Assembly: GCA_018675335.1 (NCBI GenBank)
Contig: JABGYH010000006.1
Location: 17,464 to 81,463, forward strand
DNA: 64,000 bases
Direction: 5' to 3'
Source: Candidatus Woesearchaeota archaeon
GTDB lineage: Archaea > Nanobdellota > Nanobdellia > Woesearchaeales > UBA11576
Shown here: piece after piece, positions 1 to 14,849 of the stretch
Layout: every line of letters begins with the position of its first letter
How positions within the stretch are numbered: the stretch's first letter is position 1
Notes under the pieces: generated by a model
What the model was told of the DNA's origin: nothing
Seen by the model: the letters and a program-made list of their open reading frames with translations, nothing else
Database searches by the model: none
Made by a program: the position numbers and the translations under genes

Positions 1-229
1 TACGAGTCTATCACTACTAGTAGCTCTACTACTACGAGTCATCTCGACTGAATAAATACCCCCTTAATATTTATAAATACAAAATATTTTAATATATAAA
101 GGTTTTGGTTAAATTATTAAAAAAGAAATATGACTCGCACAATAATAAACACATAAAAAAACATAAAAAATCATTCAATTTTTGAAAACAAATACGGGAA
201 ATAACCATCTCAAACATAATTTAAAAAAA

Positions 230-2758
230 TTAATTAAATACATTATCAGTAATTACATAATCAACTCCTGAAAATATGAGATCTAGAGTAGTATTAATAT
301 TATTTGACGTATATGTGTGAATTTTAAATCCTTCGTTTTTCAAAATTTTAATAAGTTCAGGATTTAAATTTAAATAATTAAAATCAAATCCCAAAATTCC
401 CAAATTCTTAAGCTGTTTAAGTTTAAACTTATTTAAGTCAAATCTTATATTTTCATTCCAATAAATAAGTTTTATATCTGAATTTAATTCATGAACTTTC
501 AATAAATAATCAAGATTAGTAGATTCTAAAAATATTTTATCAGAAAGCCCATTAATTTCAATTAAGTGTACTAATTTTTTTAAAAAAGTAAGAGGTTGAC
601 AACCAAAATCTTTCAAATCTAAATGATAATTAAGTTTCCTACCCATTTTAATAAATACTTCCTCAAGAAGAGGAATTGACTGATTAGAAATAGTTCCATC
701 AAGATTTTTTATTTTAATTTTTTTCAAATTACTCAAATTCAAATCACAAACATTTCCAGCACTATTTGTCTTATCTTGTAATAAATAATCATGAAATAAA
801 ATTATAGTTCCATCCTGTAAAGAAGTAATATCAATTTCAACATTAATAAATCCACGCTCAAATGCTTTTTCTATTGCAAGTAACGAATTTTCGGGATACA
901 ATGATAATAAACCCCTATGACCAAACAATTTATTTAATAATAACAAATTTTTAAATCGTTTACAAAGATTAGTTTTTAAAAATAAATTTATATTTGATTT
1001 TTTTACCAATACAGGGTTAGATTCTGAAGGATCTTGACGCAAATCAAAAACTAATTCGAGTTTATTTTCAAAACTATAAACTTTTTTAATAGTGTTGTTT
1101 TGATTTATCACCATAAATCCCCCTCCATAAGGTTGCATCAAAACTTGACAAGACTCATATTGATCACTAAACATACTATGATTTTTTTTAATTAAAAAAG
1201 AAAATGAATTAGAAAAATAATTATCACTTAATAAACTTAAAATTGTTGGAATAATATCTAATTGACTATATTTATCAGTTATAATCCTATTTTTAAAAAA
1301 AGTTTCATTTTTTGATTTTGGAGGAACTAATAAAAAACTTGTAACAAACGAATCTTCATAAAAAGAAATTTCATTACTATAAATATTGTGTCGCCCAATA
1401 GGAAATGAATGATCTCCAAATATCATTAAATAACTATTATTTTCATATCTCATAAATCGTTTTTTAAAAACATTCAAATGATTATCTTGAACGACTAACG
1501 AATTAATATATTCTTCATACTTATTTTGTGCAGGATTGAATTTATAAACTGAAGAATATTCAGCTATATTCTTAAACGGGTAATGATGTTCATCTAAAGC
1601 CACATAAACAAATAATTTTTGACCTTCAATATAATTTTGTTCCAAATAATCAAATAATTTATCATATACTACATCATCCGGATATCCCCACTCAGTATTT
1701 TTTTCTTGCCCAGTTAAAAATTTGTCAAACAAAACATAATCAAACCCTATTTTTTTCATAAAAATTCCCGTTTTTTGAAAATTTAAATCATCTGCACTAA
1801 AAAAATAAGTAGTATAACCTGCATCCTTCAATATTTGAGGCAAACAAATTTTATTAAATTCAGATAATCTATCAACATAAAATGCGGCATTATTACTATA
1901 AATTCCACAAAGTATATTTTCTTGAGCACGTAACGTTTGAATACTATTGCTATAAAATTGAGGAAAAAATACTCCTTCTTTTGAAATATTAGTCATAACA
2001 GGAACATAATTTCCCACATATGTTTTATCAAACATGGTAACATTAGGCATGATATCCAACCCGTTAAGAGATTCTAATTGCACAAAAAAAATATGTTCAT
2101 TATGTTTTTGAGAAAAATTAAAATTACCAAAAACCTCCAAGTAATTTAAATTATATAATTCTTCTTTATTGGCTAAATTTTGCAAATAATCTCTACTAGA
2201 AACCACCAAAGGAACTGGGAAAAAAAAGATTGAACTTATTAAATTTACAAAAATTAAAAAAACAAATAAAATTATAATTAAATTTTTCTTTTTAAATATC
2301 TGAATCAAATATTTTTCTTTTAACAAATTTTTAATAAGTTTAATTCCTGATCGAAAAGTAAAATAAATTAAAAAAAATAATCCTAAAATAAAAATAATCA
2401 AATATGAAGTACCAACAGTATTTTTTAATGTTAACAGTGAATAAAAACCACTATCAAAAACAAAAGATAAGTCAATTAAATTCCCCGTATATAAATAATA
2501 AAAAAGAAATAATATTGACAGTACCCAATATGACAAATATAATCCCCATAAAAAAAAAGTTAAAAATTTAAATTTAGTTCCAAACAACAAACAACTTAGT
2601 AAAATAAATATAAATAAAAAAAGATGAAACAAAGTTGATAAAAATATATCTAAAATTATAAATTCCAACATATTTTGTATTAGTGGTAAAAAAACAAACA
2701 ATATAATTAACGGAAATAACTCCCCCCAATTATGTTTTAACATTTGCATAAATTTCAT
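230..2758 (-). CDS. Membrane-anchored LtaS-like (sulfatase/alkaline-phosphatase superfamily) phosphoglycerol-transferase domain fused to a C-terminal glycerophosphodiester phosphodiesterase (GDPD) domain
   Basis: About 185 aa of N-terminal TM helices. Then an LtaS-like core with 'FFVQLESLNG' (the metal-binding Glu motif of LtaS 'IQLESF') and the 'FGDHSFP' Asp/His metal motif. C-terminal 'FGHRGLLSLYPENSLLAIEKAFERGFINVEIDITSLQDGTIILFHD' is a canonical GDPD HRG...PEN...E.D...HD signature. Confidence 0.6.
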   Translation of the reverse strand: MKFMQMLKHNWGELFPLIILFVFLPLIQNMLEFIILDIFLSTLFHLFLFIFILLSCLLFGTKFKFLTFFLWGLYLSYWVLSILFLFYYLYTGNLIDLSFVFDSGFYSLLTLKNTVGTSYLIIFILGLFFLIYFTFRSGIKLIKNLLKEKYLIQIFKKKNLIIILFVFLIFVNLISSIFFFPVPLVVSSRDYLQNLANKEELYNLNYLEVFGNFNFSQKHNEHIFFVQLESLNGLDIMPNVTMFDKTYVGNYVPVMTNISKEGVFFPQFYSNSIQTLRAQENILCGIYSNNAAFYVDRLSEFNKICLPQILKDAGYTTYFFSADDLNFQKTGIFMKKIGFDYVLFDKFLTGQEKNTEWGYPDDVVYDKLFDYLEQNYIEGQKLFVYVALDEHHYPFKNIAEYSSVYKFNPAQNKYEEYINSLVVQDNHLNVFKKRFMRYENNSYLMIFGDHSFPIGRHNIYSNEISFYEDSFVTSFLLVPPKSKNETFFKNRIITDKYSQLDIIPTILSLLSDNYFSNSFSFLIKKNHSMFSDQYESCQVLMQPYGGGFMVINQNNTIKKVYSFENKLELVFDLRQDPSESNPVLVKKSNINLFLKTNLCKRFKNLLLLNKLFGHRGLLSLYPENSLLAIEKAFERGFINVEIDITSLQDGTIILFHDYLLQDKTNSAGNVCDLNLSNLKKIKIKNLDGTISNQSIPLLEEVFIKMGRKLNYHLDLKDFGCQPLTFLKKLVHLIEINGLSDKIFLESTNLDYLLKVHELNSDIKLIYWNENIRFDLNKFKLKQLKNLGILGFDFNYLNLNPELIKILKNEGFKIHTYTSNNINTTLDLIFSGVDYVITDNVFN

Positions 2759-5028
2759 TTTTTAATCAATTCACCAAGTTTTTTTCTAAAAATAAATACC
2801 AAAATAAACGAAAATAAACTAAAAAAAAACAATCCAATTCTTAATGCTCTTAATTTATATTCAAAATAAACTTTGTAAACTCCTGGAGTGTCAACTTTTA
2901 CAGACATAAAACTTGGACTAATTTCGTAAATTTCAGATTCAGTTCCATTAACATACGCGCGCCATTCAGGATGCGCACTAACTTTTAACATAATAAAACA
3001 ACTAGAATCAGTTACATTAACTAAAGTTTCATAATATCCTCGCCTAACAACTTCAGTTCCACCAATAACAGATCCACAATTTTTAGGAACTGATTTAAAT
3101 GTTTGAAAAAAATGGAGTGCATCTACTGTTGTTAATTCATGTGTTTTTAAATTTTTAACATCAATATTAAAACTATTATCAGTTATAACAACTCGTTTTC
3201 TATCCTCACTTAACAATGATTGATAATTTTTCATCAAAACAGATCGTTCAGGGGGAATAATTAAAAAGTTCAAATCAATATGTTCAGTTATACTAGTTAA
3301 TTCATTCAACAAACGAGGTTTTAAAATTAGGATATGTTCATTAGTCGAAGGAAGTACACTAAAATACCACATAAGAAAAATAGGCCTGGAATCACCTAAA
3401 GAAGAATCAATCGCAATAGAACTTTGAACTAAATCAAAATAAGAAGAAGACGTTTTATTAAAAATAACATAGTTTTTATTTTTAAAATAAAAATCAGTCA
3501 AATTAGTTCTATTAGAATTTGAAATAAAATAGCCTAAATTAAATAAATTATACAGATCAGTTTTATTTGAGAATGAAATAAATGGTTTATTCACATAAAA
3601 AATACTCAAAGAATCATGTCCTCCTATTCCACCACTAAAAAAAGACGGTTTATTAGAATAAATTGGAATGCTATTAGGAATCATAGAATATGAACTAAAA
3701 TTTTCAAAAATTACTCGAGAATTAGGCATTAAATTTAACTCATTCATGATTTGATTAAGATCCGGTTCAGACCCCACATCATGAAAAGTAACAACGTTTC
3801 CCACATAATTAGCAGATGTATCTATAACAACAGGTGCCAAAAAAAAAACACAAACTAATAATACAATCAATAAATTAATTTGTTCATACCGGTGAAGCCT
3901 AAATTTAGAAGAAATCAAATCAATCAAAAAACCAAATGCGACTCCGATAAGAATTATTGAAAAAAAATGAAGCAAACTAATAAACCTAAATAATGGAATT
4001 GCACTAACACCAGGAATAAAATTAATTAAATTTCCAAATAATGCACGACCAATTAAAAAAAAGAAAGATAAACAAAACCCTGCCAAAATAAATTTATGTC
4101 TATCTTCTTGACGAAAATGAAAAGAAATCAAAATTCCCAAAACAGCAAAAAAAGTTAAAAAAGGCAATCTCCCAAAATCTAAAAAATTACCTGAAAAAAA
4201 ATGAAAAAATGATGAAACCCCATAACCATCAATACGATCAAAAGATTTATGTGAAAATTTACCATCATTCATATAATCCCCATAAAAATATATTGGAATC
4301 AAAAGAAATGCCACAAAACAGAAAGTACAAAAAGCTAAAAAAAGAATTTTCTTTAATTTTAGTTTATTAAATTTCAAAAAAAGAGCAGGCACAGCAGTTA
4401 AAGCAGCCATAAACCCAGATAAAAAATGGGTTAAAAAAGTAAGAGATAAAAAAACAGATACTTTAAAAAAAGTAATTTCATTTTTACAATTTTTAATAAA
4501 AAAAAATCGGTAAATAAACGCAATTGTAAGTGGAAAAAAAATTAACACCATCACTTGAGAGTATATACCATATTTAAAAAAAGCTACAATCTCTAATCCA
4601 AATCCCTGATAAGAAGAAAGCATTGTTGAGACCAATGCACTAAATAATGAACTAATTTGAGAAAATTCCATCAACCTCATACTTTTATAAATAACTAAAG
4701 GGAATAACCCAAAAGATAAAAAGATCGATAACTTAAATAAAAATAACAAATCTAAATGAGTGAATACATATATTAAACCAATAAAAAAATAAGATAATGG
4801 TGCATAAAAATTAAACAAAGGAAACCCCAAATTATAATCTGGACTCCACCAATTAAGAGTATGAGTTTGAATTAAATCTACCGTATTAATAACTAAATTA
4901 AAATGACTTACTCCATCGCCCCCCGGAGGAAGCCCTCGCTGCAATAAAGGAGATAAAAAAAATAAATTAAAAAAAATAATAATTCCTAAAATAATATACA
5001 GCGATGTTTTGTGTAATTCTTTCATCAA
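2755..5028 (-). CDS. Large polytopic membrane protein with C-terminal extracytoplasmic domain; GT-C-like glycosyltransferase candidate (YfhO/ArnT/PMT-like architecture). Not AglB: no WWDYG motif
   Basis: At least 12 predicted TM helices across the first ~400 aa, then a ~350 aa soluble domain. Its start overlaps the stop of the LtaS-GDPD gene by 4 nt, indicating an operon. Assignment is by architecture only. Confidence 0.35.
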   Translation of the reverse strand: MMKELHKTSLYIILGIIIFFNLFFLSPLLQRGLPPGGDGVSHFNLVINTVDLIQTHTLNWWSPDYNLGFPLFNFYAPLSYFFIGLIYVFTHLDLLFLFKLSIFLSFGLFPLVIYKSMRLMEFSQISSLFSALVSTMLSSYQGFGLEIVAFFKYGIYSQVMVLIFFPLTIAFIYRFFFIKNCKNEITFFKVSVFLSLTFLTHFLSGFMAALTAVPALFLKFNKLKLKKILFLAFCTFCFVAFLLIPIYFYGDYMNDGKFSHKSFDRIDGYGVSSFFHFFSGNFLDFGRLPFLTFFAVLGILISFHFRQEDRHKFILAGFCLSFFFLIGRALFGNLINFIPGVSAIPLFRFISLLHFFSIILIGVAFGFLIDLISSKFRLHRYEQINLLIVLLVCVFFLAPVVIDTSANYVGNVVTFHDVGSEPDLNQIMNELNLMPNSRVIFENFSSYSMIPNSIPIYSNKPSFFSGGIGGHDSLSIFYVNKPFISFSNKTDLYNLFNLGYFISNSNRTNLTDFYFKNKNYVIFNKTSSSYFDLVQSSIAIDSSLGDSRPIFLMWYFSVLPSTNEHILILKPRLLNELTSITEHIDLNFLIIPPERSVLMKNYQSLLSEDRKRVVITDNSFNIDVKNLKTHELTTVDALHFFQTFKSVPKNCGSVIGGTEVVRRGYYETLVNVTDSSCFIMLKVSAHPEWRAYVNGTESEIYEISPSFMSVKVDTPGVYKVYFEYKLRALRIGLFFFSLFSFILVFIFRKKLGELIKK

Positions 5029-5098
5029 AAATTTAAAAATAAAAGATATTTAAATAGTTTTAGAATCATTTAAATAGGAAAACAAGTATATCCAAATT

Positions 5099-5812
5099 AT
5101 GAAAATATCCATAGTAATTCCCGCATATAATGAAGAAAAAAGAATAGGAAATTCATTAAAAAAAATAATCAAATTTTGCAATAAAAATTTGACAGATTAT
5201 GAATTAATCATAGTGAATGACTTCTCAAAAGACAATACATTAGAAATAATAAACAAAAACAAAAACAAAAAAACAAAAGTTCTAAAAAATAAAAAAAATA
5301 AAGGAAAAGGTTATACTGTGAAAAGAGGTATTTTAAATGCAAAATACCCTCTAGTCCTATTTTCAGATAGTGATCTTGCAACACCTATTGAAGAAATTTT
5401 AAAAATGCTCAAATACATCCCAAAATATGATATTATTATTGCATCCAGAAACCTAAAAAAGTCCGATGTAAGAGTCAAACAATCTTGGTATCGTCAAATA
5501 ATGGGTAAAACATTTCCAATTATTGTTAATATGCTAGCAGTTCCAGGAATTCGTGATACTCAATGTGGATTTAAATTATTCAAAACAGATCTAGCAAAAA
5601 AAATTGTATCAAAGCAAACAATTAATAGATGGGCTTTTGATGTAGAATTATTATTTATCGCAAGAAAAATGAATCTAAAAATAAAAGAAGTCCCAATTAT
5701 TTGGATCGATAAAGAAGGAAGCACAATAACCAACCCCCTCCGAGACGCAACAAAAATGCTAAAAGATGTTATAAAAATCCAATTAAATAATTTCAAAGGA
5801 AAATATGATTAA
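5099..5812 (+). CDS. GT2 family polyprenyl-phosphate sugar synthase (Dpm1/GtrB/CsbB-like)
   Basis: 'ISIVIPAYNEE...IVNDFSKDNT...FSDSDLATP...TQCGFKLF' gives GT2 DxD/DAD-type motifs. Length 237 aa. Confidence 0.7.
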   Translation: MKISIVIPAYNEEKRIGNSLKKIIKFCNKNLTDYELIIVNDFSKDNTLEIINKNKNKKTKVLKNKKNKGKGYTVKRGILNAKYPLVLFSDSDLATPIEEILKMLKYIPKYDIIIASRNLKKSDVRVKQSWYRQIMGKTFPIIVNMLAVPGIRDTQCGFKLFKTDLAKKIVSKQTINRWAFDVELLFIARKMNLKIKEVPIIWIDKEGSTITNPLRDATKMLKDVIKIQLNNFKGKYD

Positions 5813-6522
5813 AAAAATTTAAAAATAAAATAATTCCATAAATTATACAAATAAAGATAATATTCTTTAAAATTTGCTTTACTTTTTCCTTTAACGCGAT
5901 CAGTAAAAGTTATTGGTACTTCTTTAACGATTTTCCAATTTGATTTAACCAACAGCTCTAAACAAATTTTAAATCCTTTTGCATTAAATCGTTTTCCTTC
6001 TATACATTTTTTTTTAATTAAAAAAAAACCAGACATGGGATCCTTCGCTTTAGTAAATGGACGAGATAAAAATGTTGCTCCTTTTGAAACAATTCTTCGA
6101 AATAAAGGCCACCCAACAATTTTACCTCCCTTAACATACCTGCTTCCAATAACAAAATCAGGAAATCGCTTATCATATCCAACAGGAGTAATAATTGCAT
6201 TATAAAGTTGAGGAATTAATTGGGGAGGATGACTCATATCAGCATCCATAACGCCTAAAATTTCTCCTTTTGCACAATCAAATCCTGCTAATACTGCAGA
6301 ACTTAAACCAGTTTTAGCAGTTCTACTTAACAAATGAAGTTTAGAAAATTTATTTTTAAGTTTTTTAACCATTTCACTCGTTCCATCAGGAGAATTATCA
6401 TCAACAACAATAATCTCCGCAGAAATTTTATATTGACTAAATAATTCAAACAAATTTTTAATTAAAATAGAAATATTTTCTTTTTCATTATAAGTTGGAA
6501 TTATTAAACTAAGAACTACCAT
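5809..6522 (-). CDS. GT2 family dolichyl-phosphate hexose synthase (Dpm1-like), paralog of the convergent neighbour
   Basis: 'LSLIIPTYNEKENI...IVVDDNSPDGT...GVMDADMSHPP'. Exactly 237 aa. Converges on the previous GT2 with overlapping stop codons. Confidence 0.7.
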   Translation of the reverse strand: MVVLSLIIPTYNEKENISILIKNLFELFSQYKISAEIIVVDDNSPDGTSEMVKKLKNKFSKLHLLSRTAKTGLSSAVLAGFDCAKGEILGVMDADMSHPPQLIPQLYNAIITPVGYDKRFPDFVIGSRYVKGGKIVGWPLFRRIVSKGATFLSRPFTKAKDPMSGFFLIKKKCIEGKRFNAKGFKICLELLVKSNWKIVKEVPITFTDRVKGKSKANFKEYYLYLYNLWNYFIFKFF

Positions 6523-8422
6523 TGTTTACTCCTCGCATCTTTTGTTTTGTTAATAAAATAAGTTTATAAACTGATTGATCGGGTTTCATTTGTAACGCAA
6601 AATTAAATGCAAATAATGCCTCCTCATATTCACCTAAATAAAAATTAGCAATTCCTAAGTTATTCCACGACTCAAATGAAGAATTATCTAATTTAATTGC
6701 TTGATGAAAAAAATATTTAGCTGAGTTATAATCACCCATTTTCAATTTGTTTATTCCTAAAAATGATTTAGAATTAGAAAAATCTCTTTTAAGAACTAAA
6801 TATACAGGATCTTTTGATTCATTATGACTTATCAAATAATTAGCACTATAATATTCATAATCTAAATCAACATTCAAAGTAGACAAATTATTAATTTGAA
6901 AAATAATGCCCCTAATAGAATAAGTTTTATTTTCAACAGATAAATTATTAAAAGTGGAAAACAAAACATAATTAGTATCTAATTTAGCAATTAAATTATT
7001 AAATATATCATCAACACTCAAATAGTTTTCATTTGATAAAATAATATTAAATTTAGATTCAAGTTGTTTTAAATAAACCTTTGATCCAAACATATTTATA
7101 TGAATGATCTCAGTATTAACAAATTTATTATCAACATACTTTAAATACCAAAAAATGGGCAAAGTTACATCACTATCGGTAAACAAAACATTTTTTTCAG
7201 ACGTAATACTATAAATAGTATTATCAACATCTAATCCATACCAATAAGGCAAATAATTATCAGATTCATTATTAATTTGAAAATTACTATAAAATTGAAA
7301 ACATATCAAACAAAAAACAATTAAAAAAATAAAACCTTTAATTAATTTATTTAACTTATAATTTAATAAAAAATAAAAGCCATAAAGTATAATAAATAAA
7401 ACAAAAAAATAAGAGCTTAAAAAAAATATATCAATTCCTTTAATTTCAGTACCTATTTTATAAGTTATATTAAATAACAAATTAACTAAAAGAACTAATA
7501 AAAAAAAAATTCCTAATTTTATATCTTTTCTTTTAAAAAATAAATAAAAAACACCTAAAAAAATAAATAAACTTAACAAACCAAATTGAAAAAACAAATC
7601 ATTTACAAAAAAGGATATATAAGACGAAACTTGAGAATAATCTGCAGACCCCATCAACGGCCTAAATTGTTTTGCAGTTACATGATCTAAAAAATTACTA
7701 AATAATTCTGGATTACCCCAATCCATTTCAGGATTCATTGAAGATCTAATTGACAAATATAAATAGGGAGTAAGGCCAATAAGAAAAATTAAAAAACAAA
7801 TAATAATTATTTTAATATTAAACATTTTTTTATTTATTTTTAAATTAAAAATATTAAATCCTTGTTTTTTAATAAATATAAAATATAAAAATCCAGGAGC
7901 AAACAAAACATAAGTAAGATGATTTGTTAAACAAAGACCGTAGGTAAAACAAAAAAAATATAACCATTTATTATCTCCTAATTTTTCAAATTTTAACAAA
8001 AAATAAAAAGATACACTCAATAAAAAAATACCTAAAGTATGAACCTCGGCAATCACTGCTTGACTCCAAAATGTTTTAGAAAAAGAAAAAAGAAAAACTG
8101 CTAATAACGAAATTAATTTATTTTTAGATAAAATTAAAGCAGATAAAAATATGAAAATAGCAGCTAAACTTCCAAAAAATGCAGACATTAAATTAATCCT
8201 AAATCCCTGAGTTCCTAAAGGAATATAAGAAAACACATGCCCTAACATAGTATGCAAAGGATATCCTGTTGGGTGCGCTATTCCCAAAGTTATTGCAGCA
8301 GTTGAAAGTTCAACTGAATCTTCCCATTCAATAATTGGATTTAAAGTAATAAAATAAATTGAAAAGGTTAAAAAAAAAACAAATACAACCATAAAATAAG
8401 TATTTAAATATTTATTAACCAT
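6509..8422 (-). CDS. DUF2723/TMEM260-like GT-C membrane glycosyltransferase candidate with C-terminal TPR repeats
   Basis: N-terminal 'LGIAHPTGYPLHTMLGHVF' resembles the DUF2723 signature. About 11 TM helices. C-terminal 'YNSAKYFFHQAIKLDNSSFESWNNLGIANFYLGEYEEALFAFNFALQMKP' is TPR-like. Overlaps the upstream GT2 by 14 nt. Confidence 0.45.
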   Translation of the reverse strand: MVNKYLNTYFMVVFVFFLTFSIYFITLNPIIEWEDSVELSTAAITLGIAHPTGYPLHTMLGHVFSYIPLGTQGFRINLMSAFFGSLAAIFIFLSALILSKNKLISLLAVFLFSFSKTFWSQAVIAEVHTLGIFLLSVSFYFLLKFEKLGDNKWLYFFCFTYGLCLTNHLTYVLFAPGFLYFIFIKKQGFNIFNLKINKKMFNIKIIIICFLIFLIGLTPYLYLSIRSSMNPEMDWGNPELFSNFLDHVTAKQFRPLMGSADYSQVSSYISFFVNDLFFQFGLLSLFIFLGVFYLFFKRKDIKLGIFFLLVLLVNLLFNITYKIGTEIKGIDIFFLSSYFFVLFIILYGFYFLLNYKLNKLIKGFIFLIVFCLICFQFYSNFQINNESDNYLPYWYGLDVDNTIYSITSEKNVLFTDSDVTLPIFWYLKYVDNKFVNTEIIHINMFGSKVYLKQLESKFNIILSNENYLSVDDIFNNLIAKLDTNYVLFSTFNNLSVENKTYSIRGIIFQINNLSTLNVDLDYEYYSANYLISHNESKDPVYLVLKRDFSNSKSFLGINKLKMGDYNSAKYFFHQAIKLDNSSFESWNNLGIANFYLGEYEEALFAFNFALQMKPDQSVYKLILLTKQKMRGVNNGSS

Positions 8423-8508
8423 TTAGTTATTCAATATTAAACATTTTAAAAAGATTTAGGTAATATAATAATTATGTCTCATAACAATCAAGTAAAATAT
8501 TATAACTT

Positions 8509-9468
8509 CTAGTTATTATTTTTGTTCTTTCTAAAATATTTTGTTAACAAAAAGTAAAATACTAAGAAATATACAACAAACAGAATCCACCCAATATTAT
8601 TATGAAACAAATTTATTGCAAATTGCCTATCTATTTCAATTGCAACAATAGTTAATAAAAAAATTCTAAAAGAAGTAAGAACAAAATCACCAATTAATGC
8701 CAATCCAAATGCAGTAAATAGCTTCCAATCTTTTTTCAATTTGTCATCATATAAAAGAACTACAAGAAACAAAAATAGAAATAAAGAACTTGACTCAATA
8801 CCTGAACAATCTTTGCTTATTCCTGCTAGAAATCCTTTAGCAACTAATCCCATTCCTTGCTCATAAGGAACTACTGTCGCAATATTACCATAAACTAAAT
8901 TCAACATCCCTGCAGTTAAATTTGCAACCAAACTTGAAAAATAAACCCAATTTAAGTTCAAAAATTCTTTAATAGCAACATATATGACAATAAGAAGAAT
9001 TAGAGAAATAAATGTTTTTTTGTATTTAAAAAAAACTTTTTTGAAATAATTCAACCCAAAAATTGCGCAAAAAAAAGTAATTGTACCCAACCCATATAAA
9101 ACGGAAGATACATAAAAAATAGTCCATGCAAAATCATAATTACTTTTTGGATGAATAAAATACCTAAGTACAAAAAAAAGGAAAAATAAAATAAGCGAAC
9201 TTACTGAAAAAACAATTAGTTGAAATAAATCAGTTTTGGGTTTTAATTTCATTAATTCTTCTTCATTTAAAATAAAAAAAAGAACTAATAACACAAAAAA
9301 AAGAATATGTAATCTATGAAGAATTATATTAAATCCAATAACTAACTCAAATATATTCGCTAAAAAACTAAATAATAAAGGAAGTAACATAAAAACAGAA
9401 GTAAAAAAAATAAAATAATTAATTCTAAAAAAATTATATTTAGACAAATTCATTTTATTTCCTTTCAA
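8509..9468 (-). CDS. Exosortase/archaeosortase family transpeptidase (ArtA-like)
   Basis: About 8 TM helices over 319 aa. 'AGISKDCSGIESSS' matches the exosortase active-site CSG(I/L)xS motif. A downstream conserved Arg lies in 'LTSFRIFLL'. Overlaps the upstream secreted-protein gene by 14 nt. Confidence 0.55.
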   Translation of the reverse strand: MKGNKMNLSKYNFFRINYFIFFTSVFMLLPLLFSFLANIFELVIGFNIILHRLHILFFVLLVLFFILNEEELMKLKPKTDLFQLIVFSVSSLILFFLFFVLRYFIHPKSNYDFAWTIFYVSSVLYGLGTITFFCAIFGLNYFKKVFFKYKKTFISLILLIVIYVAIKEFLNLNWVYFSSLVANLTAGMLNLVYGNIATVVPYEQGMGLVAKGFLAGISKDCSGIESSSLFLFLFLVVLLYDDKLKKDWKLFTAFGLALIGDFVLTSFRIFLLTIVAIEIDRQFAINLFHNNIGWILFVVYFLVFYFLLTKYFRKNKNNN

Positions 9469-9871
9469 AAATTATTATGATTTTTCCAGAATAATAACCA
9501 TCTTCAATACCAATTGGAGGAAATACTCTAAAAAACAAAGGAAATTTTTCCAAAGGTTCTAAACTAAAAGAATTATTACGAGGAATAACTAAATCAGGAT
9601 AATCACCAACTGCATAAATTTTCACATTTACAGGCACATCATGCGAGTTTGTTACAAATACTTTCCGTTCAGAACTAGATCCTCCAGGAACCATCCCAAA
9701 ATGAATAGCGTCTGGATCAACATTAATTCCTACAATCGAACCATTAACTTTAAAATCGTATAACATAGTGCTTTTTTCAACAACTTTATAACTAGAATAC
9801 GCTAAAGAAGTTATACCAATACTAAATAATAAAACTAAAAAAAATAAAATAAAAAGAGTCATTTTTTTCAT
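9455..9871 (-). CDS. Small secreted protein (signal peptide plus ~110 aa beta-rich domain), co-operonic with the archaeosortase
   Basis: N-terminal 'MKKMTLFILFFLVLLFSIGITSLAYSS' signal peptide. Only a 4 nt gap to the upstream gene. Confidence 0.4.
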   Translation of the reverse strand: MKKMTLFILFFLVLLFSIGITSLAYSSYKVVEKSTMLYDFKVNGSIVGINVDPDAIHFGMVPGGSSSERKVFVTNSHDVPVNVKIYAVGDYPDLVIPRNNSFSLEPLEKFPLFFRVFPPIGIEDGYYSGKIIIIFERK

Positions 9872-9875
9872 AATA

Positions 9876-11069
9876 TCACCACTGTGTTTGTTGTTTTTTT
9901 TTCCTCTTTTTCAAAACAATTAATACTAAAATATTAAGTAATACAAGGACAGTTACAGCACCTATCAACATCCAATTAGTATCCCCATCAAAAGTTGAAG
10001 GTTTTTTCTCATCTTGACTTTTTTGAAACTCTTCTTGACTCAGAACAGTCACATTACCCTTATAATTAGAACTGCTCCCATCATAAAACAAAGTTATTCT
10101 TAAATCTTTATTTCCTGATGTTAAGCTTTGAGAATCTAAGTACGTAGACAATGTTCCCATTCCCATTTTATCTAATTTAATTGTAGGTGTCTGAGTAATA
10201 AGGTCATCAATAAATATTTTAGCATATATATTAACATTATTATTCCAATTACTCTTAACACGAACATCAAATGGAGCTATAATACCTGCAATTAATCTAG
10301 TAGTGTGACTCATAACACCTATATTTTTTGTTCCTACAAAAAAAGAATCGCTAAGATTTTCTTCAGGTTGACCATCATAATTAATAATTGCAGTTGCAGT
10401 ATATTTACCAGGGGGAAACCCAGTAGAATCAAAGTCTGCTTCCAAAAAAATCTGTTCAAAATAACCTACTGAAAGCTCATTTGTATAAAGCGTAGTAATA
10501 GAATTTTGTTGATCATCAAATACATTTATTGTTGCACTTATTTTATCAATTAAATTTGTTCCTAAATTTTGAACTGAAATTTGCATTTTTGCAATATCAT
10601 TCTCATTTAAATTAGGCGCATTTAATTCAGAATTAATTTTATACCCTTCATAAGGCATATTAATTATTATTTTTCCCCTCGCACTACCAATTGAACCCGT
10701 TCCTCCACTATTTAAACTAGATGTTGGCACTTCAGTTACCGTAACAAAATTAGTTATTTGTCCTTGTTCAATTAAAGTTTCAGGAAGGTTTACATGAACT
10801 TTAAAATTAAGTATCGCAGGATTTTTAATATTTTTTATATATTTAGGTTCAACAGTTATATACTCCGATAATTTACCAGACACAGTTATGTCATAATCCA
10901 GCACTAAAGGAGGCCTGTTTGCTTTTATACTATAAGTATACGTTTTTTTATCACCTGGTTTAAAATTAATTAATTTTCCAGGTCCTCCAACCGAGCCAAT
11001 ACCAATAGCTAAAATAGAATTAGTAAACATAATTAATATTACTATATATAACACAAATTTTAATTTCAT
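9876..11069 (-). CDS. Secreted surface protein with C-terminal TM helix plus poly-basic tail; candidate archaeosortase substrate
   Basis: N-terminal signal peptide 'MKLKFVLYIVILIMFTNSILAIG'. C-terminus 'NWMLIGAVTVLVLLNILVLIVLKKRKKKQQTQW' is a tripartite-like sorting signal (motif, TM, Lys/Arg cluster). No PGF motif. Confidence 0.45.
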   Translation of the reverse strand: MKLKFVLYIVILIMFTNSILAIGIGSVGGPGKLINFKPGDKKTYTYSIKANRPPLVLDYDITVSGKLSEYITVEPKYIKNIKNPAILNFKVHVNLPETLIEQGQITNFVTVTEVPTSSLNSGGTGSIGSARGKIIINMPYEGYKINSELNAPNLNENDIAKMQISVQNLGTNLIDKISATINVFDDQQNSITTLYTNELSVGYFEQIFLEADFDSTGFPPGKYTATAIINYDGQPEENLSDSFFVGTKNIGVMSHTTRLIAGIIAPFDVRVKSNWNNNVNIYAKIFIDDLITQTPTIKLDKMGMGTLSTYLDSQSLTSGNKDLRITLFYDGSSSNYKGNVTVLSQEEFQKSQDEKKPSTFDGDTNWMLIGAVTVLVLLNILVLIVLKKRKKKQQTQW

Positions 11070-11099
11070 TTTATAATAAATCCCCCTTTACAATAAAAG

Positions 11100-11118
11100 A
11101 AAAAAAAAAAAAAAAAAA
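11100..11118 (-). terminator. Oligo-T tract (T19 on the coding strand) 2 nt after the stop of the upstream surface-protein gene: archaeal-type intrinsic terminator
   Basis: 19 consecutive A on the + strand at 11100-11118, directly downstream of the TAA stop at 11120-11122 of the minus-strand gene. Confidence 0.5.
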
Positions 11119-11119
11119 C

Positions 11120-11797
11120 TTAGTCTGGATCCGCATCACAAGGAGTTTCAGAACATTCTGCTACAAAAGTCCAAGTTGCTGTCTGTCCACCTTTGTTTGC
11201 TCCTTTTGGAATTTTAACATATGATGATACACTTGTATCTTCTGCTACATCCAAGTCAGTACAAACTACTTGTGAACTTCCAGTAATTTCAGCATACGTT
11301 GGTATATCCCCATCAGCACACTCATTAACATAACTTCCTCCAGCTAAATTTGAAGCATACTTAAATGATGGCGCTACATCATTACACTGATCACAAATAA
11401 ATGATGTACTAACTAAACTTGAAGTAAAGTTAATTGACAAGTCAAAACTTCCATCATTGTGAATTTGAACTGCATCTGTAGGACAAACTAAATCAGGGAA
11501 TAAAGCATCGTTAGTTTCAGTTCCATTTCCAGACCAACACTCATAATATGTTGAATCATCACTACCATTTAATGTTGCACTACCAAACGCGATAGCAGAA
11601 TCAATAAATTCGAAACTTGAATACGCTGTAATGTTCAATGTAACTTCTCCATCTTGAGTTGTGTTTGTTCCGGACGCAAATCCAGTCACAACTGTAACTT
11701 TACCTAATTTATTCATACTTAATACTACGCCCCCTAAACTAACAACGATTGCTGCTACTAATAGGATAGCTAATGTTTTGTTTGAAACTTCTTCCAT
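11120..11797 (-). CDS. Cys-rich secreted/surface protein with N-terminal signal anchor; compositionally atypical (GC-rich)
   Basis: N-terminus 'MEEVSNKTLAILLVAAIVVSLGGVVLS'. About 10 Cys residues. Strong SD 'GAGGAGGT' upstream. Codon usage and GC are clearly above the window average. Confidence 0.45.
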   Translation of the reverse strand: MEEVSNKTLAILLVAAIVVSLGGVVLSMNKLGKVTVVTGFASGTNTTQDGEVTLNITAYSSFEFIDSAIAFGSATLNGSDDSTYYECWSGNGTETNDALFPDLVCPTDAVQIHNDGSFDLSINFTSSLVSTSFICDQCNDVAPSFKYASNLAGGSYVNECADGDIPTYAEITGSSQVVCTDLDVAEDTSVSSYVKIPKGANKGGQTATWTFVAECSETPCDADPD

Positions 11798-11817
11798 ATT
11801 ATATCAAACCTCCTCTT

Positions 11818-12147
11818 TTATTCTGTAGGATTTTCAGTTCCTTCAACTGCTTCTGGTTCTACTGGTGCAGGTTCTAAAACCGCTTCAGCTTCTACAGGTT
11901 GTTCTGCTGGTAATATCTCTAAACTTACTTCTGCATCTTTAGGCTCTACTGGTGCAGGCTCTGGCGCAGGTTGAATTATTTCTAATGAAACCTTTGCATC
12001 ACCTTTATCAGACGGACCTACGATATTAACATCAGTAGGTGCCTTACTAGCCATCTCTAATACTGTCACTGTACCAACAACTGAAACAACAAGTGTAAGA
12101 ACCAGCAAAATCAAAATAGTTTTTTTCGAAACGTCATCTTTTGCCAT
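11818..12147 (-). CDS. Small Pro/Glu/Ala/Val-rich repeat surface protein with N-terminal TM, paralogous N-terminus to the neighbour
   Basis: 'MAKDDVSKKTILILLVLTLVVSVVG' resembles the neighbour's 'EEVSNKTLAILLVAAIVVSLGG'. Internal repeat 'DAKVSLEIIQPAPEPAPVEP' / 'DAEVSLEILPAEQPVEAEA'. Perfect SD 'AAAGGAGGTAAGTAAT ATG'. GC-rich. Confidence 0.4.
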   Translation of the reverse strand: MAKDDVSKKTILILLVLTLVVSVVGTVTVLEMASKAPTDVNIVGPSDKGDAKVSLEIIQPAPEPAPVEPKDAEVSLEILPAEQPVEAEAVLEPAPVEPEAVEGTENPTE

Positions 12148-12415
12148 ATTACTTACCTCCTTTTAAGAAACTTTGTTTTTAAAAAAACTCCATTTCTTCA
12201 CCTTAAAAATTAAATTATTGTACTGAATACAAAAAATTATATTTAAAGCTTTCTATTTTTTGGCCTTTTTTCCATACCAGGACCCAAATAACGCCACTGA
12301 AACGACCAAGAAGTAGTAAACATAAAAAACAACTAAAAAACCAATAAATTTCACTACTTAATCATAGTTAAATAACCAAAAGATATTTAAATGATTAAAT
12401 TCTTTACCAACTAAA

Positions 12416-12937
12416 ATGTGGGCCGACTTACTACATAAAATTTGTATTTTCTTAATAATTATAATTTTAATAACATTAGGTTGGACTGCAAATGATATCA
12501 TCAGTGAAAGCCTAGAAATAAAATATGAAAAACCATTCGCATTTTCAATTAAAGAAATAACTAAAAGTACAGAAATTAGTTCTCCCTCAAATCACATTAA
12601 AGAAAACCAAATTCATGTTTACCAAGATTTAATCATTTTAGATATAAAAAACGCTAGTTGGGGTAGTTTTACAGATACTAATAGCATGGATCCATTCTTA
12701 GATCAAGGCTCAAATAGCATCGAAATCAAACCAACAAAACAATCACAAATTCAAGTAGGAGATATTATTTCTTATGAAAACTCTAAAAAAGAAATCATAA
12801 TTCACAGAGTAATAGAAAAAGGACTTGATTCAGAAGGTACTTATTATATACTTAAAGGAGATAATAATCAAGGTAAAGATCATCAAAAAGTACGGTTCAA
12901 TCAAATCAAAGGAATTTTAGTTGGAATAATTTACTAA
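12416..12937 (+). CDS. Signal peptidase I (S26B, Sec11-like archaeal type)
   Basis: N-terminal TM. 'TNSMDPFL' (Ser box), 'IIHRVIE' (His box) and 'LKGDNNQ' (GDNN box). Confidence 0.6.
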   Translation: MWADLLHKICIFLIIIILITLGWTANDIISESLEIKYEKPFAFSIKEITKSTEISSPSNHIKENQIHVYQDLIILDIKNASWGSFTDTNSMDPFLDQGSNSIEIKPTKQSQIQVGDIISYENSKKEIIIHRVIEKGLDSEGTYYILKGDNNQGKDHQKVRFNQIKGILVGIIY

Positions 12938-12947
12938 TCAAACCAAA

Positions 12948-13799
12948 ATGGTTTTTCAAGAAGAAGCTAAATATTTAAGAGAATGCCAAACAAGGGTCAT
13001 AATCCCTGTTCCAACTAGGTCAGGAATTGAAAAATTTCTATTTCACCAAGATAAAAATTCTCAAACAGGACAAGAATCTCACATTAAATCAATTGGGGGA
13101 ATAGTTGACTTAGGTGATTTAAGCATTACTGAAAGATTATCTTTAGAAGTTTCTCAAGAATTAGGTGCAGAATTAGTTTATGTTGAACCATTTTATGTTG
13201 CAATTGATTCAAGAACAGATTCTACAACTGGCTCAACAGTTCATTCAGTTATTCATTATTATTGGGGAAAATTAAAAAGAACGCCCCCTGAAGGAATCAT
13301 AACTCCTGATAAAACATTAATTACTCCCTCAGGTGCAAAAATACATCTCCCTAACATAACTCCTGATGAAAATGGAGATATCACACACAGAATTAAACAT
13401 TTAACAAGGGATGATGTTCAAACAATGTGTTATGATGGCACTCGAAGAGCAGTAGATCAATTAAATGATTTAAGTTTAAATGAACGCGCAAAATCTAGAG
13501 ACTATACTCTTTCACAAGAATATGTTAGTTTAGTTCAACAAATGACTGGTAAAAAAATTTCTCAAAAATGCCAACTTATTCTCAGACCATATAAAAAGCA
13601 TGCAATCAAAGGATTAAAAGAAGCTCAATTATTAATTATGACTGATTTATTTTGGCACAATACAAGACTTACTTGGAATAGAAGAAAACATGCTAGTTTA
13701 AAAAAACAAGTGAAAACTTATGCGCGATCTAAAAAATTCAAAACAGAGATTCAAAAACTATTTGAAGGAGGCCAATTATACTTAAAATATTTTCAATAA
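12948..13799 (+). CDS. Hypothetical protein
   Basis: 283 aa ORF with no motif I can assign. Coding-like composition. Confidence 0.3.
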   Translation: MVFQEEAKYLRECQTRVIIPVPTRSGIEKFLFHQDKNSQTGQESHIKSIGGIVDLGDLSITERLSLEVSQELGAELVYVEPFYVAIDSRTDSTTGSTVHSVIHYYWGKLKRTPPEGIITPDKTLITPSGAKIHLPNITPDENGDITHRIKHLTRDDVQTMCYDGTRRAVDQLNDLSLNERAKSRDYTLSQEYVSLVQQMTGKKISQKCQLILRPYKKHAIKGLKEAQLLIMTDLFWHNTRLTWNRRKHASLKKQVKTYARSKKFKTEIQKLFEGGQLYLKYFQ

Positions 13800-13928
13800 T
13801 AAAAAATAATCTAACATATTATACTCCCATCATATAGTGCACTCTCAATCATAAGTAACCAAATCCACATATAAAAAAAATTATTTCTTCAACAAATTAT
13901 TTAAACACTTAGTTCTTATTCTTAATTT

Positions 13929-14849
13929 ATGACCCAAAATATACCCTACCATGTTCTTGCAGATCCAGAAAAAATAAAAAAAATCGAACAAGCAGGAAAA
14001 ATTGCAGCAGAAGCATTACAATATGGCAAATCACTCATAAAACCAGGAGTTTTACTACTAGATGTTGCAACCAAAGTAGAAAAAAAAATATTTGATATGG
14101 GTGGAAAGCTAGCATTCCCAGTTAACATCTCACTAAATCAAACCGCAGCACATTACACTCCCATCCCTCAAGATAAATCAGTTTTTACTGATGAAATTAT
14201 TAAATTAGATGTTGGAGCACACGTTGATGGATTTATTGGAGACAATGCACTTACAGTTGACTTATCAAATCAACATTCTGATTTAGTTAAAGCTTCACGC
14301 GATGCACTTAATGCAGCAATTAAAACAATTCGAGTCGGAGTAACATTAGGTGAAATTGGAAAAGCAATACAAGAAACAATTGAAAGTTCAGGATTTAAAC
14401 CAATTAAAAATCTTAGCGGTCATGGACTCGGAGAATACGAACAACATAGCGGAATTAGCATTCCAAATTACAATACAGGAGATACAACTGAATTAAATGA
14501 AGGGCAACACATCGCAATTGAACCTTTTGCCACAAATGGAATAGGACTCATTGTTGAAAAAGGAAATCCATTCATTTATTCCCAAGTAATCAAAAAACCA
14601 GTTAGAAGTCAAATAACCCGCGAAGTTCTTAAATTAATTGAATCATACAAAGGACTACCTTTCGCAACTAGATGGATCACAGATAAATATCCTTTGTTCA
14701 AAGCAAATTTTGCAATAAGAGAATTAACACAAATTAATTTAATTAGGGGTTACGCACCATTAGTTGAAAAACGAGATGGACTCGTTAGTCAAGCAGAACA
14801 TAGTCTTATCGTCGGAGATAAACCTAAAATTACAACAAAAATAGATTAA
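13929..14849 (+). CDS. map: Methionine aminopeptidase, type 2 (archaeal/eukaryotic-type)
   Basis: 'AHYTPIP', 'DVGAHVDGFIGDNALT' and 'GHGLGEYEQHSG' metal-ligand motifs. About 300 aa, typical of archaeal MetAP2. Confidence 0.9.
   Translation: MTQNIPYHVLADPEKIKKIEQAGKIAAEALQYGKSLIKPGVLLLDVATKVEKKIFDMGGKLAFPVNISLNQTAAHYTPIPQDKSVFTDEIIKLDVGAHVDGFIGDNALTVDLSNQHSDLVKASRDALNAAIKTIRVGVTLGEIGKAIQETIESSGFKPIKNLSGHGLGEYEQHSGISIPNYNTGDTTELNEGQHIAIEPFATNGIGLIVEKGNPFIYSQVIKKPVRSQITREVLKLIESYKGLPFATRWITDKYPLFKANFAIRELTQINLIRGYAPLVEKRDGLVSQAEHSLIVGDKPKITTKID

Follow-up and report, generated by a model that had tools for sequence, protein, structure and literature searches.

This study concerns a five-gene locus at positions 230 to 8422 of a 64,000 nt stretch of DNA (the window) from a Candidatus Woesearchaeota archaeon, and in particular its gene for an 842 aa bifunctional membrane protein (230..2758, minus strand), in which a domain resembling the lipoteichoic acid (LTA) synthase LtaS is joined to a glycerophosphodiester phosphodiesterase (GDPD; Pfam families Sulfatase and GDPD). 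Directly upstream, and overlapping it by 4 nt, lies the gene of a 757 aa polytopic membrane protein (2755..5028, minus strand), assigned as an open reading frame (ORF) and by its topology. A divergent intergenic region of 70 bp (5029..5098) separates the latter gene from GT2a (5099..5812, plus strand), which encodes a 237 aa family 2 glycosyltransferase (GT2) of the soluble GT-A polyprenyl-phosphate-sugar-synthase type (PF00535). The minus strand further holds GT2b (5809..6522), also 237 aa and by its match to PDB entry 5mlz a homologue of dolichyl-phosphate-mannose (Dol-P-Man) synthase (DPMS) with the catalytic domain only, and the gene of a 637 aa homologue of the TMEM260-like GT-C O-mannosyltransferases (6509..8422; PF11028) with C-terminal tetratricopeptide repeats (TPR); these two genes overlap by 14 nt. 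All five ORFs, along with the 4 nt overlap, have the coordinates, strands and lengths given in a preliminary description of the locus.

Seven T residues come immediately after the stop codon of the fusion gene, and then a TATA-like box and the start of a new gene. Along with the 4 nt overlap this indicates that the 757 aa gene and the fusion gene constitute a two-gene unit, of which the 757 aa gene is the first. The 70 bp region presumably contains the promoters of both the 757 aa gene and GT2a; a sigma-70 scan of it was uninformative, as the DNA is AT-rich and archaeal.

Two catalytic domains in one membrane protein

The N-terminal membrane domain of the fusion (residues 1-190; 2189..2758, minus strand) has about five transmembrane (TM) helices; the hydropathy scan detected about five hydrophobic segments within residues 12-188 and none beyond. 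The loops 61-66 and 136-154 are rich in K or K/R, hence the positive-inside rule predicts that the N-terminus lies inside and the C-terminus outside, and with no later TM helix both catalytic domains would be located outside the membrane. LtaS also has five TM helices (10.1101/337519), and the membrane region is kept in the unfused relatives.

We rule out that the fusion is an assembly artefact or the result of a frameshift, since the identical 842 aa product (P0175) was found on three contigs in several repositories, and since an orthologue in another genome (L020, described below) is collinear across the junction. A 99%-identical fragment (P0032) spans residues 75-248. The full 842 aa model is recorded in JGI, ENA and Logan; the NCBI gene model MBT7903008.1 (606 aa) begins at the internal Met237, dropping the five TM helices and the QLES motif.

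The extracytoplasmic LtaS/LtaP-like domain of predicted alkaline-phosphatase fold (residues 205-605; 944..2146, minus strand) matches PF00884 Sulfatase at residues 223-510 (E 3e-28). A family profile built from 31 members and compared with the PDB gave full-domain matches to LtaP (2.9e-31), to VP1736 (1.6e-27) and to the LtaS structures of B. subtilis and S. aureus (2e-21) and L. monocytogenes (1e-20), while genuine sulfatases reached 3e-15 at best and matched no more than the C-terminal half. Thr275, within 'SIQTLRAQE', is the nucleophile; the position reads S-I-Q-T275-L-R-A, and the formylglycine motif C/S-x-P-x-R (CxPxR) is absent from it. The profile ranking along with the missing motif rules out an arylsulfatase, and the domain sides with LtaS/LtaP as first described. 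QLES (E229), T275 and GDH (D449/H450) align with E255, T300, D475 and H476 of S. aureus LtaS, which the GacH paper lists as Mn ligands and nucleophile (10.1101/337519); H392 is a further residue of the metal site. Among the 31 family members E229, T275 and D449 are invariant.

The glycerol-binding residues H347, W354 and R356 of LtaS are on the other hand replaced throughout the family, with S, Q and the invariant T317 standing there in the window protein. When the profile is aligned to 2w5q, the LtaS segment 'mHGDYKTFWNR' stands opposite 'fraddLeFant' of the family, and VP1736 likewise lacks the His/Trp/Arg triad. The family thus matches LtaS in fold, topology and chemistry and differs from it in the head-group pocket, hence a role as glycerol-phosphate (GroP) polymerase cannot be assumed. 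By this comparison the teichoic acid synthase, in the sense of a poly-GroP synthase, considered in the preliminary description is doubtful, and transfer of a single phospho-headgroup, as by LtaP, GacH or OpgB, appears likelier.

The GDPD domain (residues 612-842; 233..925, minus strand) bears out the first assignment and is canonical and practically complete: PF03009 matches residues 614-840 (E 1e-28; 101.4 bits against a cutoff of 23.6) over profile positions 1-242 of 244. Its motifs are H614-R615, P-E623-N, E641-x-D643, H656-D657 and D714-x-K716, the last in place of E-x-K; H614-R615, E623, E641/D643 and H656-D657 have their counterparts in the alignment with B. subtilis GlpQ (5t91), and L020 has the same residues. 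The motifs first quoted for the fusion (QLES, GDH and HRG/PEN/HD) are accordingly all present and aligned to catalytic positions. The closest solved relatives are the GlpQ teichoicases of B. subtilis (5t91, 2e-16) and S. aureus (2oog, 7e-16), both of which are sn-glycerol-3-phosphate-specific exo-teichoicases (PMC7086022), and in S. pneumoniae the membrane-anchored extracellular GlpQ/GDPD enzyme WhyD tailors a surface polymer (PMC9208761). Also among the best solved relatives are the chains of PDB 9euf, 9eul and 9f49, named 'GP-PDE domain-containing protein / ORF58', which are 832-848 aa long with a C-terminal GDPD.

The two domains could together belong to a true LTA-like system, the main idea of the preliminary description. 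In it the LtaS-like domain, starting from a phosphatidylglycerol-type lipid, would polymerise GroP onto a membrane anchor, the chain would be glycosylated by GT2a and the YfhO-like 757 aa protein in the manner of CsbB/YfhO in Bacillus and Staphylococcus, and the GDPD would limit the chain length. In its favour are the five-TM and LtaS-fold architecture with all its metal and nucleophile residues, the CsbB-type GT2 close by and a signal of YfhO/PgfM1 type in the 757 aa protein; in B. subtilis and S. aureus, LTA receives its sugars through CsbB/GtcA/YfhO (PMC8035078, PMC5836110). We nevertheless find it improbable. The residues replaced family-wide are those by which LtaS holds the glycerol, both in GroP and in the growing chain; the closest solved structures are those of the primase LtaP and of VP1736, not of the polymerising LtaS; and a fused GroP-diesterase would work against a polymerase. 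Further, LTA in archaea or Patescibacteria was not reported in the literature searched, and a glycolipid-anchor synthase was not found at the locus.

Recurrence of the fusion and its glycosyltransferase partners

To follow the distribution of the fusion we used an exhaustive phmmer search of 1.84 billion representatives, which gave 286 matches below 1e-30, and a domain survey of the top 150 representatives. Most of the latter are about 590-620 aa long and end exactly at the 'CKRFK' of the window protein, hence the GDPD seems to be an addition at this end, joined by a linker as short as about 8-10 residues. Sulfatase and GDPD domains occur together in 6 of the 150 (P0138, P0140, P0142, P0171, P0173 and P0123). 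A genome scan added L020, an 841 aa orthologue in a metagenome-assembled genome (MAG) bearing a Methanosarcinales label. This protein shares 42% identity with the whole window fusion, 45% with its catalytic domain and 49% with its GDPD, and is collinear with it across the junction. In the five fusions from Patescibacteria the second domain is a divergent phospholipase C (PLC)-like variant (H-x-G-G, T-N-S, E-x-D, H), which can hardly be aligned with the window GDPD; P0123 (Binatia) and the window/L020 pair have a canonical GDPD. In all eight fusion proteins examined the catalytic residues of both domains are kept.

A neighbour-joining tree of the catalytic domain placed the fusions at three separate positions, with unfused proteins as nearest neighbours of the window protein. 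From these positions, the domain types and the identities per domain we conclude that the fusion arose at least three times: in the window and L020 lineage, in a Patescibacteria clade with the PLC-like domain, and in P0123. By the Rosetta-stone argument, such repeated and independent fusion suggests that the two activities act in one process. The fusion, which the preliminary description did not recognise, is thus rare but not unique, and JGI names it 'glycerophosphoryl diester phosphodiesterase'. In the literature searched we found neither this fusion nor the Patescibacteria module presented below described, nor any GDPD fused to a synthase-type domain. The domain survey also gave two family members of other architecture: P0108 (876 aa) has an N-terminal GT2 domain fused to the TM and Sulfatase regions, this GT2 being closest to the module GT2 of locus L004 (E 8e-42), and P0058 (811 aa) has a C-terminal Laminin_G_3 lectin-like domain.

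LtaS-type domains had been called unusual in archaea, and they are indeed sparse in DPANN-type archaea, but they are not absent: besides L020, unfused family members were found in two low-GC 'uncultured archaeon' MAGs (L017 and L018), one of these genes lying among FEN1, FtsZ and MetRS genes. Such housekeeping contexts of close unfused relatives could point to a catabolic or scavenging function, with both outer domains being hydrolases that serve a symbiont unable to synthesise the products itself. The LtaS-like domain would then be phospholipase-C-like or a phosphodiesterase and the GDPD GlpQ-like, together yielding phosphate, glycerol-3-phosphate or lipid cores from phospholipids, glycerophosphodiesters or teichoic acids of the host or the environment, and the glycosyltransferase neighbours would be unrelated envelope genes. 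DPANN and Candidate Phyla Radiation organisms are generally described as lacking lipid synthesis, which counts for this explanation, as does the glycerol-binding pocket unlike that of LtaS. The best solved relatives of the GDPD are, further, secreted teichoicases used under phosphate limitation (PMC7086022; PMC9208761, citing Jorge 2018 and Myers 2016). We still consider scavenging unlikely. The conserved five-TM domain is typical of transferases, and GroP released by LtaS-type hydrolysis would be a monoester and as such no substrate for a GDPD, so the two domains do not make a sequential catabolic pathway. Further, the linkage to GT-C and GT2 genes is recurrent and tight, including overlapping genes and the GT2-LtaS-like fusion.

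This linkage is seen in Patescibacteria. At two loci (L004 and L008) the gene of a 541-562 aa membrane protein lacking a Pfam match overlaps the start of the fusion, which is followed by a 241-248 aa GT2. An upstream protein of the same family precedes the fusion at L006, where a methyltransferase follows, and at L007 a GT2 and a methyltransferase precede the fusion, which is followed by an overlapping GT87 GT-C. At L011 a GT-C, an unfused LtaS-like protein and a GT2 come in the same order, and L009 has the same genes rearranged. No split form, with a separate GDPD gene beside unfused clade members, was seen at L009-L011, the place being taken by a GT2 or the contig end. Directly upstream of the GT-C/LtaS-like module of L006 (170-4200) and L026 (3389-5868) lie 6-8 tandem T4SS_pilin (PF18895) genes.

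The upstream proteins of Patescibacteria (L004:2-1627, L006:4542-6230 and L008:2947-4581) constitute one family of about 530-560 aa proteins with 43% identity and at least 472 members, all from Patescibacteria, with no Pfam match and no PDB sequence match. After TM1 they share the invariant motif D31-x-D33-x-G-x-H37 (alignment A2). An AlphaFold2 model based on 52 sequences (pLDDT 90, pTM 0.91) matched only GT-C enzymes in a Foldseek search of the PDB, namely STT3 (5e-7), DPY19, PglB, AglB, AftA and ALG9, with a top TM-score of 0.65 for a yeast oligosaccharyltransferase entry. On the strength of this model we suggest that the family has a GT-C fold and is effectively an undescribed GT-C family outside Pfam. 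Its members are usually followed by a 246 aa GT2. This is also true of two members picked independently of the fusion, each of which has such a GT2 directly after it and neither of which has an LtaS-like gene; near one of these pairs (locus L025) lies a gene for a GtrA-type flippase. Since the pairs exist without the LtaS-like gene, the LtaS-like enzyme seems to be an accessory to the glycosylation system. At its core the module would thus be a transmembrane glycosylation system of the classical GT-A plus GT-C kind (PMC8035078), with the LtaS-like enzyme inserted as an accessory by analogy with GacH in the streptococcal group A carbohydrate cluster (10.1101/337519; PMC8035078).

In the window it is the 757 aa protein that occupies the GT-C position. 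It was first described as GT-C-like, which its topology fits: by hydropathy TM1 is followed by a 45-residue outer loop with the motif G-G-D38-G-V-S-H42, about 10 more TM helices to residue 410, an extracytoplasmic domain of about 315 aa and a C-terminal TM helix. Residues 640-757 match PF09586 YfhO (E 4e-6; 25.8 bits, below the cutoff of 28.5) at profile positions 765-833 of 835, and the C-terminal fragment matches the NCBIfam model PgfM1, a YfhO-type GT-C (E 1e-5, below cutoff), at positions 874-952 of 955. As these matches are collinear and come from separate libraries, a divergent YfhO-type enzyme is the most likely identity. The full-length protein had no above-threshold family match in Pfam or NCBIfam, and we therefore regard it as probably a very divergent YfhO/PgfM1-type GT-C whose membership is not established. 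A word-indexed search returned only the protein itself, a PDB sequence search to E 10 gave no homologue, and none was found in the genome and metagenome contig scans, nor any paralogue in the window or the fetched loci. A 'D-x3-H' motif after TM1 is common to the 757 aa protein, the partner family (A2) and a neighbour of the L020 fusion; the alignments are not significant and the motif is a hint only.

Both 237 aa GT2 proteins belong to PF00535 and resemble polyprenyl-phosphate sugar synthases, as stated earlier, with likeness to DPMS, GtrB and ArnC. Among solved structures GT2a matches Dol-P-Man synthase (5mlz, 1e-16) and GtrB (7e-14), and its top NCBIfam matches are PgfS and a haloarchaeal Dol-P-hexose transferase; PgfS is among the top matches of both GT2s, far below the NCBIfam cutoffs. 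Aligned over its full length, GT2a shares 36-40% identity with the module GT2s of L008, L009 and L011 (E 5e-42 to 5e-47), hence we suggest GT2a as the conserved partner of the fusion. GT2b has weak similarity to the Patescibacteria module GT2s (about 1e-13) and is by its match to P. furiosus DPMS (5mlz; E 3.7e-54, residues 4-230 aligning with 25-245) a predicted Dol-P-Man synthase. The 637 aa protein carries, as described, the domain formerly called DUF2723, now TMEM260-like (PF11028; 111.5 bits against a cutoff of 24.2, 5e-32), plus TPR, and matches the human TMEM260 structure 9rql over residues 14-393 (E 4.9e-26).

The five genes had been seen as one cluster of three enzyme classes. The linkage stands, as the same arrangement recurs in Patescibacteria, but the matches of GT2b and the TMEM260-like protein, along with the likeness of GT2a alone to the module GT2s, led us to reject a single pathway. 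We read the locus as two predicted extracytoplasmic glycosylation modules. Module 1 would consist of GT2a, the 757 aa protein and the 842 aa fusion, and module 2 of GT2b and the TMEM260-like/TPR GT-C as a self-sufficient protein O-mannosylation pair.

The genes of module 2 are co-transcribed with those of an archaeosortase and of putative surface proteins. The gene of the archaeosortase-family protein (8509..9468, minus strand; PF09721, TIGR04178 exo_archaeo) lies directly upstream of the TMEM260-like gene and belongs to the context of module 2, outside the fusion module. At 8509-12147 (minus strand) it is co-directional with four genes of small or medium proteins lacking a Pfam match, among which a 397 aa protein (9876-11069) has a C-terminal hydrophobic helix and a KKRKKK tail, typical of sortase-type C-terminal sorting signals. 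The proteins encoded beside the archaeosortase may be substrates of the adjacent O-mannosylation pair. The window, which has a GC content of 23-32%, holds other genes of archaeal type besides the archaeosortase, namely those of an anaerobic ribonucleotide reductase, of ELP3 and of an ATP-dependent DNA ligase that includes its N-terminal domain, and no RNA genes were detected in it by Rfam. Two further large ORFs, of 798 aa (30621-33017, plus strand) and 547 aa (60146-61789, minus strand), lacked any Pfam match with an E-value of 1e-5 or lower; for the former this also held at 1e-3.

With these neighbours the whole locus could also be a protein-glycosylation island, where GT2a and the 757 aa protein act as a PgfS/PgfM1-like O-glycosylation pair beside the DPMS/TMEM260 pair on archaeosortase-processed proteins, and the LtaS-like/GDPD protein modifies membrane lipids or another target independently, being co-transcribed only as a fellow envelope function. 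The TMEM260 and DPMS homologues, the archaeosortase and the putative surface proteins are directly adjacent, and PgfS (for both GT2s) and PgfM1 (for the C-terminus of the 757 aa protein) are the top NCBIfam matches. The L020 fusion, too, lies among five TPR-bearing membrane proteins and a TMEM260-like gene. We hold such an island to be rather improbable, since the PgfS and PgfM1 scores are so far below cutoff, the 757 aa gene overlaps the fusion gene, and several Patescibacteria have the LtaS-like gene placed between those of the GT-C and the GT2. As to the L020 locus itself (1-14424), the five proteins are tandem paralogues of 575-663 aa, 37-56% identical, with an N-terminal membrane domain carrying an 'FVWDD' motif and C-terminal TPR repeats. 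A divergent 499 aa membrane protein lacking a Pfam match, with 'GPDGYYHIK' after TM1, also neighbours the fusion, and the homologue of the window TMEM260-like protein near it is 51% identical.

Proposed function of module 1

We propose that module 1 is a system for extracytoplasmic glycosylation in which a GacH/LtaP-like enzyme transfers phospho-headgroups and bears its own trimming phosphodiesterase, a reading to which we assign a probability of roughly 0.45. GT2a, by homology, would make a dolichyl- or polyprenyl-phosphate sugar at the cytoplasmic face, and after flipping the 757 aa YfhO/PgfM1-like GT-C, if the sub-threshold assignment holds, would move the sugar to an acceptor at the outer face, such as a glycolipid, a glycan or a surface protein. 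The LtaS/LtaP-like domain, held by its five TM helices and using Thr275 and metal, would take a phospho-alcohol head group, most likely GroP, from a membrane phospholipid; fold, topology and catalytic residues of this domain can be traced directly, and the donor and the acceptor are the conjectural part. It would then put one unit or a few onto the glycoconjugate, as LtaP, GacH and OpgB do on their acceptors. The fused GDPD, with intact motifs and on the same side of the membrane, would hydrolyse glycerophosphodiester bonds to trim, edit or recycle the decoration, by analogy with WhyD and the GlpQ teichoicases acting on teichoic acids. The order of the steps and the GDPD role are what we infer from these parts. 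Taken together, the module points to an uncharacterised cell-surface decoration with sugar and, probably, GroP.

Several observations weigh against this proposal. All its steps rest on sequence comparison and gene context, and with the glycerol-binding residues replaced the head group moved could be other than GroP. The match of the 757 aa protein to YfhO is below the gathering score, its single-sequence AlphaFold2 model reached a pLDDT of 39 with no significant Foldseek match, and neither BLASTP nor hhalign, with 3 and then 52 sequences, related it to the Patescibacteria partner family. No ORF for a GtrA-like or Wzx-like flippase was found among those scanned at 230-20530. The closest unfused relatives of the LtaS-like half (L001-L003 and L018) lack glycosyltransferase neighbours, and neither a GT2a homologue nor a 757 aa homologue lies within 6 kb of the L020 fusion. 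The stereochemistry is a further point. Archaeal phosphatidylglycerol analogues possibly have a mirror-image head-group glycerol, as in the lipid structures of halophiles, and if so the product of the LtaS-like domain would be sn-glycerol-3-phosphate (sn-Gro-3-P) and hence the natural substrate of the fused GlpQ-like domain. With the stereochemistry of Firmicutes the LtaS-type product would be sn-Gro-1-P, which is not a substrate of a sn-Gro-3-P-specific GlpQ-type GDPD (PMC7086022).

Beyond the proposed transferase with its trimming phosphodiesterase, we speculate that a DPANN archaeon and many Patescibacteria build a GroP-containing surface glycoconjugate, using host-phospholipid head groups as donor and the built-in GDPD to set the level of decoration. 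The glycoconjugate could be a teichoic-acid-like polymer or GroP-capped glycans, and such a GroP system would probably have been acquired as a module that ultra-small bacteria and ultra-small archaea share. This wider scenario is a long shot.

The components themselves are all of known kinds: an LtaS-fold phosphotransferase, a GDPD and a GT-A/GT-C glycosylation system. The fusion, its archaeal occurrence and its sharing between DPANN and Patescibacteria are new. To our knowledge almost nothing is known of the envelope chemistry of DPANN and Patescibacteria, though surface contact with hosts is vital to both, and the locus offers a concrete three-gene module common to the two groups, with a GT2, a GT-C-type protein and an LtaS-like/GDPD enzyme. 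It also exposes the large candidate GT-C family of Patescibacteria. The repeated fusion of LtaS-type with GDPD- or PLC-type domains is an argument for a coupling between the addition and the removal of a phospho-alcohol decoration, for which we found no example in the Firmicute teichoic-acid literature examined. If the decoration is GroP, teichoic-acid-like chemistry would be extended to Archaea, as the first of its type there, and scavenged host lipids would be suggested as head-group donors.

Comparison with known systems

Module 1 shares with the streptococcal GacH/SccH systems and their GacI-GacL partners, which serve side-chain and GroP decoration of the group A and serotype c carbohydrates, a cluster of a GT-A polyprenyl-phosphate-sugar synthase, a GT-C and an LtaS-fold membrane enzyme (10.1101/337519; PMC8035078). 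GacH adds single GroP units to a glycan outside the cell, and its Mn ligands and Thr nucleophile are the same. It differs in having 11 TM helices against 5 in the fusion, in retaining the glycerol-binding His/Arg that the window family lacks, and in having no GDPD domain. GacL is PMT_2-type and not YfhO-like, and the host of the window is an archaeon with neither rhamnan nor peptidoglycan.

The Firmicute LtaS/LtaP enzymes with CsbB-GtcA-YfhO have the same five N-terminal TM helices and extracellular sulfatase-fold domain, and a CsbB-type GT2 and a partner with a YfhO-type C-terminus are both present in the window. H347/W354/R356 are in contrast not conserved, a GDPD is fused, no GtcA/GtrA flippase is nearby, and GT2a lacks the C-terminal TM helices of CsbB/GtrB.

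WhyD resembles the fusion in carrying an extracytoplasmic GlpQ/GDPD domain on a polytopic membrane domain, and WhyD and GlpQ act on polymers of glycerol- or ribitol-phosphate (PMC9208761). The membrane part of WhyD is however a 7-TM transporter-like module and not an LtaS-type enzyme, and WhyD is purely hydrolytic.

OpgB (MdoB), phosphoglycerol transferase I, and Vibrio VP1736 (PDB 3lxq) are likewise membrane-anchored enzymes of the alkaline-phosphatase fold. OpgB moves GroP from phosphatidylglycerol onto periplasmic glucans, and the OpgB models are the best NCBIfam matches of the sulfatase-fold half (2.6e-10 and 1.5e-8), with scores well under the equivalog cutoffs. OpgB lacks both a GDPD domain and linkage to GT-C or GT2 genes, and VP1736 is uncharacterised.

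Module 2 finds its counterpart in the DPMS/TMEM260 route of O-mannosylation, as GT2b and the 637 aa protein match these two enzymes and their genes overlap. It differs in that the Pyrococcus enzyme has a C-terminal TM domain, which is missing from GT2b, and in that an archaeosortase is co-transcribed with the pair.

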